A program made the translations under genes and the position numbers. A stretch of DNA of 39,818 nt, from sequence record ON528716; one strand, 5' to 3'. The stretch is from Shigella phage ESh2. Every line of letters begins with the position of its first letter. Position 1 is the stretch's first letter. Positions 3,718 through 39,815 of this stretch are shown piece after piece. The notes under the pieces are model-generated. The model was not told the DNA's origin. It did no database searches and saw only the letters and a list, made by a program, of their open reading frames with translations.

Positions 3718-6369
3718 ATGAACACGATTAACATCGCTAAGAACGACTTCTCTGATATCGAACTGGCTGCTATCCCGTTTAATACTCTGGCTGACCATTA
3801 CGGTGAGCGTTTAGCTCGCGAACAGTTGGCCCTTGAGCATGAGTCTTACGAAATGGGTGAAGCACGATTCCGCAAGATGTTTGAGCGTCAACTTAAAGCT
3901 GGTGAGGTTGCGGACAACGCTGCCGCTAAGCCTCTCATTACTACCCTGCTCCCCAAGATGATTGCACGCATCAACGATTGGTTTGAGGAAGTGAAAGCTA
4001 AGCGAGGCAAGCGCCCGACAGCCTTCCAGTTCCTGCAAGAAATCAAGCCGGAAGCAATAGCGTATATCACCATTAAGACAACTCTGGCTTGCCTCACAAG
4101 CGTAGACAATACAACAGTTCAGGCTGTAGCAAGTGCAATCGGTCGAGCTATTGAGGACGAGGCGCGCTTTGGTCGTATCCGTGACCTTGAAGCTAAGCAC
4201 TTCAAGAAAAATGTTGAGGAGCAACTAAACAAGCGCGTAGGGCACGTCTACAAGAAAGCATTCATGCAGGTTGTCGAAGCTGATATGCTCTCTAAGGGTC
4301 TGCTAGGTGGCGAGGCGTGGTCTTCGTGGCACAAGGAGGACTCCATTCACGTAGGTGTGCGCTGCATTGAGATGCTCATTGAGTCAACCGGAATGGTCAG
4401 CTTGCATCGTCAAAACGCAGGCGTAGTCGGGCAAGACTCTGAGACTATCGAACTCGCACCGGAATACGCTGAGGCTATCGCAACCCGTGCTGGTGCACTG
4501 GCTGGTATCTCTCCGATGTTCCAACCTTGCGTAGTTCCTCCTAAGCCTTGGACTGGTATTACTGGTGGCGGCTATTGGGCTAACGGTCGCCGTCCTCTGG
4601 CACTGGTGCGCACTCACAGTAAGAAAGCACTGATGCGCTATGAAGACGTTTACATGCCTGAGGTGTACAAAGCGATTAACATTGCGCAAAACACCGCATG
4701 GAAAATCAACAAGAAAGTCCTAGCGGTCGCCAACGTAATCACCAAGTGGAAGCACTGCCCCGTAGAGGACATCCCAGCGATTGAACGTGAAGAACTCCCG
4801 ATGAAACCGGAAGACATCGACACGAATCCTGAGGCGCTCACCGCTTGGAAACGTGCTGCTGCTGCTGTGTATCGCAAGGACAAGGCTCGCAAGTCTCGCC
4901 GTATCGGCCTTGAGTTCATGCTTGAGCAAGCCAATAAGTTCGCTAACCATAAGGCCATCTGGTTCCCTTACAACATGGACTGGCGCGGTCGTGTTTACGC
5001 TGTGTCAATGTTCAACCCGCAAGGTAACGATATGACCAAGGGTCTGCTGACGCTGGCTAAAGGTAAACCAATCGGTAAAGAAGGTTACTACTGGCTGAAA
5101 ATCCACGGTGCAAACTGTGCTGGTGTCGATAAGGTTCCGTTCCCTGAGCGTATCAAGTTCATTGAGGACAACCACGAGAACATCATGGCTTGCGCTAAGT
5201 CTCCACTGGAGAACACTTGGTGGGCTGAGCAAGATTCTCCATTCTGTTTCCTAGCGTTCTGCTTTGAGTACGCTGGGGTACAGCACCACGGATTAAGTTA
5301 CAACTGCTCTCTTCCACTGGCGTTCGATGGGTCTTGCTCTGGTATTCAGCACTTCTCCGCGATGCTCCGCGATGAGGTAGGTGGTCGTGCTGTTAACCTG
5401 CTTCCTAGTGAAACCGTTCAGGACATCTACGGGATTGTCGCTAAGAAAGTCAACGAGATTCTGCAAGCTGATGTAATCAACGGGACCGACAACGAAGTAG
5501 TAACCGTGACCGATGAGAACACTGGTGAAATCTCTGAGAAAGTCAAGCTGGGTACTAAGGCGCTGGCTGGTCAATGGCTGGCTTACGGTGTTACTCGCAG
5601 TGTGACTAAGCGTTCAGTCATGACGCTGGCTTACGGGTCCAAAGAGTTCGGCTTCCGTCAACAAGTGCTGGAGGACACCATTCAGCCAGCAATTGATTCC
5701 GGTAAGGGTCTGATGTTCACGCAACCGAATCAGGCTGCTGGATACATGGCTAAACTGATTTGGGAAGCTGTGAGCGTCACGGTGGTGGCTGCGGTTGAAG
5801 CAATGAACTGGCTCAAGTCTGCTGCTAAGCTGCTGGCTGCTGAGGTCAAAGATAAGAAGACTGGAGAGATTCTTCGCAAGCGTTGCGCTGTACATTGGGT
5901 GACTCCTGATGGGTTCCCTGTGTGGCAGGAATACAAGAAGCCTGTTCAGACTCGCTTGAACCTGATTTTCCTCGGTCAGTTCCGTCTGCAACCTACCATT
6001 AACACCAACAAGGATAGCGAGATTGACGCACACAAACAGGAGTCCGGTATCGCTCCTAACTTTGTGCATAGCCAAGACGGTAGCCACCTGCGCAAGACTG
6101 TGGTGTGGGCGCATGAGAAGTACGGAATCGAATCCTTTGCACTGATTCATGACTCCTTCGGGACCATTCCGGCTGACGCTGCTAACCTGTTCAAAGCTGT
6201 TCGCGAAACTATGGTGGACACCTATGAGTCTTGTGATGTACTGGCTGACTTCTACGACCAGTTCGCTGACCAGTTGCATGAGTCTCAATTGGACAAAATG
6301 CCAGCACTTCCGTCTAAAGGTAACTTGAACCTCCAAGACATCCTTAAGTCAGACTTCGCGTTCGCGTAA
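3718..6369 (+). CDS. 1: DNA-directed RNA polymerase (single-subunit, T7 type)
   Basis: 883 aa; near-identical to T7 RNAP (MNTINIAKNDFSDIELAAIPFNTLADHYGERLAREQ...); matches the T7-type promoters in the genome. Confidence 0.99.
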   Translation: MNTINIAKNDFSDIELAAIPFNTLADHYGERLAREQLALEHESYEMGEARFRKMFERQLKAGEVADNAAAKPLITTLLPKMIARINDWFEEVKAKRGKRPTAFQFLQEIKPEAIAYITIKTTLACLTSVDNTTVQAVASAIGRAIEDEARFGRIRDLEAKHFKKNVEEQLNKRVGHVYKKAFMQVVEADMLSKGLLGGEAWSSWHKEDSIHVGVRCIEMLIESTGMVSLHRQNAGVVGQDSETIELAPEYAEAIATRAGALAGISPMFQPCVVPPKPWTGITGGGYWANGRRPLALVRTHSKKALMRYEDVYMPEVYKAINIAQNTAWKINKKVLAVANVITKWKHCPVEDIPAIEREELPMKPEDIDTNPEALTAWKRAAAAVYRKDKARKSRRIGLEFMLEQANKFANHKAIWFPYNMDWRGRVYAVSMFNPQGNDMTKGLLTLAKGKPIGKEGYYWLKIHGANCAGVDKVPFPERIKFIEDNHENIMACAKSPLENTWWAEQDSPFCFLAFCFEYAGVQHHGLSYNCSLPLAFDGSCSGIQHFSAMLRDEVGGRAVNLLPSETVQDIYGIVAKKVNEILQADVINGTDNEVVTVTDENTGEISEKVKLGTKALAGQWLAYGVTRSVTKRSVMTLAYGSKEFGFRQQVLEDTIQPAIDSGKGLMFTQPNQAAGYMAKLIWEAVSVTVVAAVEAMNWLKSAAKLLAAEVKDKKTGEILRKRCAVHWVTPDGFPVWQEYKKPVQTRLNLIFLGQFRLQPTINTNKDSEIDAHKQESGIAPNFVHSQDGSHLRKTVVWAHEKYGIESFALIHDSFGTIPADAANLFKAVRETMVDTYESCDVLADFYDQFADQLHESQLDKMPALPSKGNLNLQDILKSDFAFA

Positions 6370-6377
6370 CGTCAAAT

Positions 6378-6400
6378 TAATACGACTCACTATAGAGGGG
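6378..6400 (+). promoter_or_regulatory. T7 RNAP promoter phi1.1A
   Basis: taatacgactcactatagagggg. Confidence 0.85.
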
Positions 6401-6458: not shown

Positions 6459-6481
6459 TAATACGACTCACTATAGGGAAG
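6459..6481 (+). promoter_or_regulatory. T7 RNAP promoter phi1.1B
   Basis: taatacgactcactatagggaag. Confidence 0.85.
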
Positions 6482-6689: not shown

Positions 6690-6947
6690 ATGGGACGTTT
6701 ATACAGTGGGAACTTGAATGACTTCAAGGATGCTTGCAACAGGCTCTACCAGTTAGACTTTGCTGTTATTTGTGATGAATGGTACGATGCTTACAAACGC
6801 CTTGCGTGTATGCGTCTACGCGTAGAGGACAGGGCTGGAAACCTGATTGATGCCAATACGTTCTGCCACCACGATGAAGACGTCTTGTACAATACGTGTA
6901 CTGAATGGCTGAACCGTATGTACGACCAGTTGAAGGACTGGAAGTAA
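6690..6947 (+). CDS. 1.2: inhibitor of host dGTP triphosphohydrolase
   Basis: 85 aa; MGRLYSGNL...DQLKDWK homologous to T7 gp1.2. Confidence 0.9.
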   Translation: MGRLYSGNLNDFKDACNRLYQLDFAVICDEWYDAYKRLACMRLRVEDRAGNLIDANTFCHHDEDVLYNTCTEWLNRMYDQLKDWK

Positions 6948-6967
6948 TACGACTCACTAAAGGGACA
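6945..6967 (+). promoter_or_regulatory. T7 RNAP promoter phi1.3
   Basis: taatacgactcactaaagggaca. Confidence 0.8.
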
Positions 6968-7025: not shown

Positions 7026-8051
7026 ATGATGAACATTAAGACCAACCCATTCAAAGCCGTGTCTTTCGTAGAGTCTGCCATTAAGAAGGCTCTGGATAAC
7101 GCTGGGTATCTTATTGCTGACATTAAGTACGATGGTGTACGTGGGAACATCTGCGTAGACAATACTGCTAACAGTTGCTGGCTCTCTCGTGTATCTAAAA
7201 CGATTCCGGCACTGTCTTACCTTAACGGGTTCGACTCACGTTGGCAGTGTCTGCTAAAGGATGACCGCTGCTTCTACCCTGATGGCTTCATGCTGGATTG
7301 CGAACTTATGGTCAAGGGAGTGGACTTCAATACTGGCTCCGGCCTTCTGCGGACCAAGTGGTTAAACAAGAAGAACATGCAGTTCGATATTGGCGGTCCA
7401 TATGAATCGTGGGACGTGAGCATGAAGGGACTTCCTTTCGGCCTTGACCCGAACTTACTAACAGTCAAACTGTACGCTATCATCCCGCTGCACATCGTAG
7501 AGTCTGGAGAAGACTGTGATGTCATGACGTTGCTCATGCAGGAACACGTTAAGAACATGCTGCCTCTGCTACAGGAATACTTCCCCGAAATCGAATGGCA
7601 AGCGGCTGAGTCTTATGAGGTTTACGACATGGTGGAACTACAGCAACTGTACGAGAAGAAGCGTGAAGAAGGTCATGAGGGTCTCATTGTGAAAGACCCG
7701 ATGTGTATCTATAAGCGTGGTAAGAAGTCCGGCTGGTTCAAAATGAAGCCAGAGGACGAAGCTGACGGTCTCATTCAGGGTCTTGTGTGGGGAACCGAAG
7801 GTTTAGCAAATGAAGGTAAAGTAATCGGATTTGAGGTGCTTCTTGAGAGTGGTCGTGTAGTTAACGCCACAAACATCTCTCGCGCCTTAATGGATGAATT
7901 TACAACCAACGTTAAAGAGTTCGGAGATGAATACTACAACGGATGGGCTTGTCAAATCAGCTACATGGAGGAAACACCAGACGGCTCTTTGCGGCACCCA
8001 TCATTCGTAATGTTCCGTGGCACCGAGGACAACCCTCAAGAGAAAATGTAA
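7026..8051 (+). CDS. 1.3: ATP-dependent DNA ligase
   Basis: 341 aa; MMNIKTNPFKAVSFVESAIKKALDNAGYLIADIKYDGVRG (KxDG adenylation motif) matches T7 ligase; about 18 aa shorter than T7 as recalled. Confidence 0.95.
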   Translation: MMNIKTNPFKAVSFVESAIKKALDNAGYLIADIKYDGVRGNICVDNTANSCWLSRVSKTIPALSYLNGFDSRWQCLLKDDRCFYPDGFMLDCELMVKGVDFNTGSGLLRTKWLNKKNMQFDIGGPYESWDVSMKGLPFGLDPNLLTVKLYAIIPLHIVESGEDCDVMTLLMQEHVKNMLPLLQEYFPEIEWQAAESYEVYDMVELQQLYEKKREEGHEGLIVKDPMCIYKRGKKSGWFKMKPEDEADGLIQGLVWGTEGLANEGKVIGFEVLLESGRVVNATNISRALMDEFTTNVKEFGDEYYNGWACQISYMEETPDGSLRHPSFVMFRGTEDNPQEKM

Positions 8052-8056
8052 TCACT

Positions 8057-8088
8057 GGCTCACCTTCGGGTGGGCCTTTCTGCGTTTA
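8057..8088 (+). terminator. early intrinsic terminator TE (host RNAP)
   Basis: 8-bp GC-rich stem ggctcacc/ggtgggcc with ttcg loop followed by tttctgcgttt. Confidence 0.8.
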
Positions 8089-8102
8089 TAAGGAGACACT
8101 TT

Positions 8103-8258
8103 ATGTTTAAGAAGGTTGGTAAATTCCTTGCGGCTTGGGCTGTTATCCTCATATTCACATATCTTCTGGTTGTGCATCCTCCGGTAGCTTTTGTGTTTAT
8201 TGGTGGGTGCTTACTCATATCAGCGTGTATATGCGTGTGGAGTATAGTTAACTGTTAA
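8103..8258 (+). CDS. 1.4: gene 1.4 small membrane protein
   Basis: SD aggag then ATG 8103; MFKKVGKFLAAWAVILIF... matches T7 gp1.4 (51 aa). Confidence 0.8.
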   Translation: MFKKVGKFLAAWAVILIFTYLLVVHPPVAFVFIGGCLLISACICVWSIVNC

Positions 8259-8278
8259 TACGACTCACTAAAGGAGGT
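8256..8278 (+). promoter_or_regulatory. T7 RNAP promoter phi1.5
   Basis: taatacgactcactaaaggaggt. Confidence 0.8.
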
Positions 8279-8285
8279 ACACACC

Positions 8286-8375
8286 ATGATGTACTTAATG
8301 CCATTACTCATTGTCATTCTAGGATGCCTTGCGCTCCACTGTAGCGATGATGATATGCCAGATGGTCACGCCTAA
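8286..8375 (+). CDS. 1.5: gene 1.5 protein (29 aa)
   Basis: MMYLMPLLIVILGCLALHCSDDDMPDGHA matches T7 gp1.5. Confidence 0.75.
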   Translation: MMYLMPLLIVILGCLALHCSDDDMPDGHA

Positions 8376-8395
8376 TACGACTAACTAAAGGAGAC
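8373..8395 (+). promoter_or_regulatory. T7 RNAP promoter phi1.6 (variant with A at -7)
   Basis: taatacgactaactaaaggagac; C-to-A at -7 relative to consensus. Confidence 0.6.
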
Positions 8396-8400
8396 ACTAT

Positions 8401-8661
8401 ATGTTTCGACTTCATTACAACAAAAGCATTAAGAATTTCACGATTCGCCGTGCTGACCGTTCAATCGTATGTGCGAGCGAGAGCCGAGCTAAGTTACCTC
8501 TTATTGGTAACACAGTTCCTTTGGCACCGAGCGTCCACATCATTATCACCCGTGGTGACTTTGAGAAAGCAATAGACAAGAAACGTCCGGTTCTTAGTGT
8601 GGCAGTGACCCGCTTCCCGTTCGTCCGTCTGTTACTCAAACGAATCAAGGAGGTGTTCTAA
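8401..8661 (+). CDS. 1.6: gene 1.6 protein
   Basis: 86 aa; [27 protein letters not shown]... matches T7 gp1.6. Confidence 0.9.
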
Positions 8662-8997
8662 TGTCTCGTATCATGCAAAAATGTGATAGCCCTACCTACT
8701 GTGAAGCCTGTAATGGTGACGACCGCTTTCCTCATGTGGGTAAGCCTATAGTCGATAAACCACAAGATATAGAGGGTGTGCGCACTCCGAGCCACTACAT
8801 GTTGTTTGACGACATTGAGGCTATCGAAGTGATTGCCCGTTCAATGACTCGTGAGCAGTTCAAAGGGTACTGCTTAGGGAACGTCTTAAAATACAGACTA
8901 CGTGCTGGCAAGAAGTCAGAACTGGCTTACTTAGAGAAAGACCTAGCGAAAGCAGACTTCTATAAAGAACTCTTTGAGAAACATAAGGATAAATGTT

Positions 8998-9005
<8 letters not shown>
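8661..9005 (+). CDS. 1.7: gene 1.7 protein (nucleotide kinase homolog), N-terminally shortened relative to T7
   Basis: 114 aa; C-terminal part ...PSHYMLFDDIEAIEVIARSMTREQFKGYC...KHKDKCYA matches T7 gp1.7 C-terminus; T7 protein recalled as about 196 aa. Confidence 0.8.
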
Positions 9006-9359
<354 letters not shown>

Positions 9360-9362
<3 letters not shown>

Positions 9363-9382
9363 TACGACTCACTATTAGGGAG
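9360..9382 (+). promoter_or_regulatory. T7 RNAP promoter phi2.5
   Basis: taatacgactcactattagggag. Confidence 0.8.
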
Positions 9383-9431
9383 GGAAGACTCCCTTTGAGA
9401 AACCAAACGAAACCTAAAGGAGATTAACATT

Positions 9432-10130
9432 ATGGCTAAGAAGATTTTCACCTCTGCGCTGGGTACTGCTGAACCTTACGCTTACCTCTCCAAGCCGGAC
9501 TACGGTAACGAAGAGCGTGGCTTTGGGAACCCTCGCGGTGTCTACAAAGTTGACCTGACTATTCCCAACAAAGACCCGCGCTGTCAACGCATGGTCGATG
9601 AAATCGTGAAGTGTCACGAAGAGGCTTATGCTGCTGCCGTTGAGGAATACGAAGCGAATCCACCTGCTGTAGCTCGTGGTAAGAAACCGCTGAAACCGTA
9701 TGAAGGCGACATGCCATTCTTCGATAACGGTGACGGCACGACTACCTTTAAGTTCAAATGCTACGCGTCTTTCCAAGACAAGAAGACCAAAGAGACCAAG
9801 CACATCAATCTGGTTGTGGTTGACTCCAAGGGTAAGAAGATGGAAGACGTTCCGATTATCGGTGGTGGCTCTAAGCTGAAAGTCAAATACTCTCTGGTTC
9901 CGTACAAGTGGAACACTGCTGTAGGTGCAAGCGTTAAGCTGCAACTGGAATCCGTGATGCTGGTCGAACTGGCTACCTTTGGTGGCGGTGAAGACGATTG
10001 GGCTGACGAAGTTGAAGAGAACGGCTATGTTGCCTCTGGTTCTGCCAAAGCGAGCAAACCACGCGACGAAGAAAGCTGGGACGAAGACGACGAAGAGTCC
10101 GATGAAGTAGACGAAGACGGAGATTTCTAA
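9432..10130 (+). CDS. 2.5: single-stranded DNA-binding protein with acidic C-terminal tail
   Basis: 232 aa; MAKKIFTSALGTAEPYAYLSKPDYGNEERGF... ends DEDDEESDEVDEDGDF; matches T7 gp2.5. Confidence 0.97.
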   Translation: MAKKIFTSALGTAEPYAYLSKPDYGNEERGFGNPRGVYKVDLTIPNKDPRCQRMVDEIVKCHEEAYAAAVEEYEANPPAVARGKKPLKPYEGDMPFFDNGDGTTTFKFKCYASFQDKKTKETKHINLVVVDSKGKKMEDVPIIGGGSKLKVKYSLVPYKWNTAVGASVKLQLESVMLVELATFGGGEDDWADEVEENGYVASGSAKASKPRDEESWDEDDEESDEVDEDGDF

Positions 10131-39792: not shown

Positions 39793-39815
39793 TAATACGA
39801 CTCACTATAGGGAGA
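39793..39815 (+). promoter_or_regulatory. T7 RNAP promoter phiOR (right-end promoter; its transcript continues across the window boundary into position 1)
   Basis: taatacgactcactatagggaga; window end ...gggagagga joins window start gggacgaaagg... to recreate the T7 phiOR leader. Confidence 0.9.

Follow-up and report, generated by a model that had tools for sequence, protein, structure and literature searches.

A C-to-A substitution at -7 in the φ1.6 promoter homologue of a T7-like Shigella phage, and its probable effect on promoter activity

Promoter recognition and class II promoters in T7

R746 of T7 RNA polymerase (RNAP) is said to contact the template-strand G opposite C-7 of the promoter in the structure of Cheetham et al. 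1999. The specificity loop of the polymerase reads promoter positions -11 to -7 through R746, N748, R756 and Q758 (PMC5937735; PMC11880802). In the in vitro data of Komura et al. 2018, which cover 7,847 barcoded T7 promoter variants, C-9, T-8 and C-7 were retained in >98% of the variants with >1% activity (PMC5937735). Substitutions at -9 to -7 are likewise credited with <5% activity by Imburgio et al. 2000, as cited in PMC5937735. In file S2 of that paper, the wild-type T7 promoter has a mean RNA/DNA ratio of 169 ± 19 and the C-7A template (TAATACGACTAACTATAGG) a ratio of 0.054. The C-7A promoter thus retains ~0.03% of wild-type activity, a value derived from one barcode (55 RNA reads / 1,015 DNA reads) in the consensus -2T context with T7 RNAP. 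A template with T-2A (TAATACGACTCACTAAAGG), the change that is natural in φ1.6, gave ratios of 138-161 in the same file.

When T7 carrying a re-targeted RNAP was subjected to experimental evolution, only 5/16 promoters changed; φ1.5 adapted in 4/4 lines and φ1.6 in none (PMC6171733). Simulation parameters place each class II promoter, φ1.6 included, at 0.01 of φ10 strength (PMC6938266). The only terminator of T7 RNAP annotated in the T7 genome is Tφ, after gene 10.

The φ1.6 homologue and its genome

The window, that is, the whole stretch of 39,818 nucleotides analysed here, does not come from T7 but from a distinct Teseptimavirus, whose genome it presents in circularly permuted form. Its closest deposited genomes (AV103 and JacobBurckhardt) are ~92-93% identical over 25 kb, and identity over the φ1.6 region is 91.6% with T7 and 95.3% with phage 64795_ec1. 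The φOR homologue lies at the extreme right end of the window (39793-39815) and φOL at 939; the physical genome ends and the terminal repeat would therefore be internal to the window, among its first several hundred bases, not at its ends.

Scanning the window for 23-mers with no more than seven mismatches to the 23-bp T7 consensus returned 17 plus-strand promoter sites, one per T7 promoter position. These pair 1:1 with φOL, φ1.1A, φ1.1B, φ1.3, φ1.5, φ1.6, φ2.5, φ3.8, φ4c, φ4.3, φ4.7, φ6.5, φ9, φ10, φ13, φ17 and φOR of T7 (V01146). The φ1.6 homologue, a class II promoter spanning -17 to +6, occupies 8373-8395 on the plus strand and reads TAATACGACTAACTAAAGGAGAC, with -17 at 8373, A-7 at 8383 and +1 at the G at 8390. 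Like T7 φ1.6 (V01146 position 7895), it is located between genes 1.5 and 1.6, has its +1 117 nt from that of φ1.5, and shares bases with both the stop codon of gene 1.5 and the Shine-Dalgarno sequence of gene 1.6. Gene 1.5 (29 aa; 8286..8375, +) ends in a TAA that forms promoter positions -17 to -15, and the -7 base is non-coding. Gene 1.6 (86 aa; 8401..8661, +) is intact and follows immediately, its Shine-Dalgarno overlapping +1 to +4 and its ATG at +12. Both the gene order, with gene 1.5 and φ1.5 upstream and gene 1.6 directly downstream, and the 23-bp match (22/23 bases) identify the site as the φ1.6 orthologue.

The sole mismatch to the annotated T7 φ1.6 in this 23-bp pairwise comparison is a C>A at -7, where T7 φ1.6 and all relatives examined have C. 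Within the core C-9, T-8, C-7, A-6 that the specificity loop reads in a functional promoter, the site therefore departs at one base. The other 16 of the 17 T7-type promoters in the window all have C at -7. Their differences from T7 lie in the initiation region or are shifts to consensus (φOL -11A>G, φ1.1A -17C>T and φ1.3 -5G>C), and the change in φ1.6 is the only binding-domain move away from consensus among all promoters of the window. The initial annotation, which reported a C-to-A change at -7 of 'phi1.6' and C at -7 in every other T7-type promoter of the window, was correct on both counts, and the reference T7 φ1.6, which it had named as a possible carrier of the same base, has C. The name holds for the promoter position, but the element belongs to a T7 relative, as the homologue of φ1.6, and not to T7 itself.

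The polymerase that would read this promoter is encoded in the same genome. Gene 1 (3718..6369, +) specifies a single-subunit phage RNAP of 883 aa, 871/883 of them identical to T7 RNAP (~99%). Its specificity loop is of the T7 type, keeping R746, N748, R756 and Q758, and differs from that of T7 by I743V and M750I only. No phage record contained an identical 70-aa segment of the RNAP loop.

Downstream of the promoter, genes 1.6, 1.7, 1.8 and 2 are all open. The gene 1.6 product is 91-97% identical to those of 15 IMG/VR relatives and 79% identical to that of a sixteenth. Gene 1.7 (nucleotide kinase family; 8661..9005, +) is a short allele with a Berlinvirus-like N-terminus, encoding 114 aa where T7 gp1.7 has 196. 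Its N-terminal part (~8664-8792) is without nucleotide similarity to T7 or 64795_ec1. The match is instead with Berlinvirus phage BP12A, at 93% aa across the full length and 87.8% nucleotides across 8605-9005. Together these findings point to a probable mosaic or recombination junction where genes 1.6 and 1.7 meet. The gene 1.8 homologue (8998..9165, +) is intact when its translation is compared with T7 gp1.8, and gene 2 (host RNAP inhibitor; 9168..9362, +) encodes a protein identical to T7 gp2.

Conservation at -7 and the weighing of explanations

At -7, φ1.6 has C in both T7 and 64795_ec1, and the same base stands in the φ1.6 homologues of 16/16 gp1.6-encoding IMG/VR loci (...GACTCACTA... 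upstream of gene 1.6), among them loci in which a replacement has occurred upstream of the promoter. Across the fetched relatives, -7 is C in 187/187 distinct promoter-like sites, with T-8, A-6 and A-3 equally invariant; this count carries some ascertainment bias, many loci having been fetched by a C-7-containing pattern, and the fetched loci reach well past the seeding matches. The complementary scan for a base other than C at -7, TAATACGACT[A/G/T]ACTAWAGG, gave 0 matches in IMG/VR viral contigs vs 109 stretches with C. The exact 23-mer with the A variant was absent from viral contigs, and a 27-mer with the A variant was absent from metagenome and genome contigs. In blastn searches of 50,697 phage records, an 81-nt query (8345-8425) had a best match of 79/81, the best of 178 records, and a 38-nt query (-17 to +21) had a best full-length match of 37/38 among 174 covering records. 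Some T7 lines evolved in the laboratory have an extra mismatch over the 81 nt; in the two examined, it is the coding sequence of gene 1.5 that changed and not the promoter. Such strict conservation of C-7 at φ1.6 in all relatives examined suggests that the promoter is normally under purifying selection; its loss may therefore carry some cost and not be fully neutral.

The change is identical to the C-7A of the engineered T7 point mutants at -9 to -7 (Imburgio 2000; Komura 2018, PMC5937735). Those mutants are synthetic templates in a class III consensus context transcribed by T7 RNAP, whereas the allele in the window is natural, belongs to a related phage and stands in a class II promoter (A at -2, GGAGAC start). 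Because the RNAP loop is of the T7 type and the 16 other promoters keep C-7, we consider the φ1.6 homologue very probably inactive, a relic of a promoter, in a reading that carries T7 RNAP data on a consensus promoter over to a related sequence and polymerase. The initial annotation had taken positions -7 to -11 to be read by the RNAP specificity loop, in agreement with the published work (PMC5937735; PMC11880802), and had called the promoter likely weakened or inactive, a view that the ~0.03% activity of C-7A (PMC5937735, file S2) and the retained T7-type loop support.

Substantial activity would be kept if the polymerase, with I743V and M750I in its specificity loop, tolerated A at -7. I743V, which none of the closest Teseptimavirus relatives has, lies three residues away from R746, and this lends the idea some appeal. 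However, C-7 is retained in all 16 other promoters, R746 is unchanged, and M750I is common to relatives with a normal φ1.6. Berlinvirus-type polymerases normally have V743, with no link to a non-C base at -7, and V743 and I750 occur together in IMG/VR contig 651703085, whose φ1.6 homologue has C at -7. A coarse promoter pattern run over the Berlinvirus loci returned mostly chance matches, and these were left out of the evidence on their promoters. We rejected co-variation of polymerase and promoter because V743 is common in Berlinvirus-type polymerases and because of contig 651703085, and regard a tolerant polymerase as very unlikely. Still more improbable, to the point of being negligible, is that the -7 base acts on translation of gene 1.6 from read-through mRNA and not on transcription. 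The base precedes the gene 1.6 Shine-Dalgarno by 5 nt, but the predicted minimum free energy (MFE) and the predicted unpaired probability from Shine-Dalgarno to ATG are essentially equal for A and C in three contexts (mean unpaired probability 0.508-0.515 vs 0.510-0.513, respectively). With predicted accessibility of the ribosome-binding site unchanged, a translational or RNA-structure role was rejected.

Sequencing or assembly error at 8383, with C as the true base and a normal promoter, also has to be weighed. The altered position is invariant in every relative examined and the A variant was found nowhere else; moreover, exact look-ups of gp1.6 and gp1.7 found neither protein on record in another assembly, so the base is without corroboration from any independent assembly. 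Yet the genome is ~7-8% divergent from its closest relatives and private substitutions are plentiful. A second one, a T>C at -18 (8372, +), was seen in the alignment; it is synonymous (GCT>GCC) in the last sense codon of gene 1.5. Consensus substitution errors would generally be far rarer than real differences at such divergence, and a real change would be tolerable at a site that is non-coding in a promoter that is redundant. Because the genome has so many private differences, one of them only 11 nt away, a real substitution is much more likely than an error, which we hold to be unlikely. A real substitution could in turn be adaptive, silencing of φ1.6 having been selected, for example, to lower 1.6-1.8 expression, to remove interference between promoters 117 nt apart, or once a foreign 1.7 allele had been acquired just downstream. 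The mosaic, Berlinvirus-like N-terminus of gene 1.7 begins ~270 nt downstream, and φ1.3 and φOL are nearer consensus than in T7, so the promoter balance of this lineage differs. On the other hand, the change is in one genome only and has not recurred, silencing one of five equivalent promoters would lower read-through modestly (~1/5), and the present evidence looks the same under selection and drift. An adaptive origin thus seems improbable to us.

Read-through and the loss of a redundant promoter

The promoters upstream of the site are intact. The φ1.5 homologue (8256..8278, +; +1 at 8273) is identical to T7 φ1.5 over -17 to +6, and the φ1.1A homologue (6378..6400, +), a probable upstream source of read-through, and the φ1.1B homologue (6459..6481, +) both have an intact core. 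The φ1.3 homologue (6945..6967, +) has the consensus C at -5 where T7 has G. As the φOL homologue (939-961; G at -11 vs A in T7) is likewise nearer consensus than in T7, both are predicted from sequence to be stronger than their T7 counterparts, and the balance of early and class II promoters would therefore differ from that of T7. A simple terminator scan of 7900-9500 detected no terminator-like site, and no host σ70 promoter was detected in the same interval. A homologue of the host early terminator TE is expected near 8083, as estimated from the T7 coordinate offset.

Because T7 RNAP has no annotated terminator before Tφ, genes 1.6-1.8 would be served by φ1.1A, φ1.1B and φ1.3 as well as by φ1.5. 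The earlier proposal that transcription of 1.6-1.8 depends on φ1.5 read-through was thus sound as to read-through but too narrow as to its source, φ1.1A, φ1.1B and φ1.3 being intact too. Given the equal-strength class II parameters (PMC6938266), read-through transcription would be expected to fall by ~1/5 when one of the five promoters ahead of gene 1.6 is lost. The pattern seen in T7 with a re-targeted RNAP (PMC6171733) fits redundancy of φ1.6 with φ1.5: there, many non-functional promoters were tolerated, and it was φ1.5, not φ1.6, that came under strong selection. In that system the polymerase had been changed, in the laboratory, whereas the phage described here has a normal polymerase and one changed promoter.

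Taken together, we think it likely that a real C>A at -7 inactivated the φ1.6-equivalent class II promoter, that read-through keeps the downstream genes transcribed, and that the loss was near-neutral. In T7-type promoters the specificity loop of the polymerase reads the base pair at -7 in the major groove, and the change from G:C to T:A would remove the contact of R746 to the template-strand G. With this contact lost, binding and initiation by the phage polymerase at a useful rate would not be expected at φ1.6. Genes 1.6, 1.7, 1.8 and those downstream would instead be transcribed by read-through from φ1.5, φ1.3, φ1.1A and φ1.1B. With four intact promoters upstream, loss of φ1.6 would therefore be nearly neutral and would reflect the redundancy of class II promoters, and since these promoters are redundant, its functional consequence should be small. 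A bolder statement, that a knockout at a position invariant elsewhere has become naturally fixed here and shows φ1.6 to be dispensable in the wild or, less likely, that the polymerase tolerates A-7, we regard as quite unlikely.

To conclude, the site at 8373-8395 is a T7 class II promoter orthologue with a previously unrecorded natural substitution at an otherwise invariant position, one that almost certainly inactivates it; unless tested, the site should not carry the annotation of an active promoter. Provided that the base is real, it represents the natural loss of one tandem, redundant class II promoter in a T7-like phage, in agreement with laboratory evidence that T7 grows with many of its promoters non-functional. 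It calls for no new mechanism; for promoter turnover in the Teseptimaviruses it is one further, small data point.
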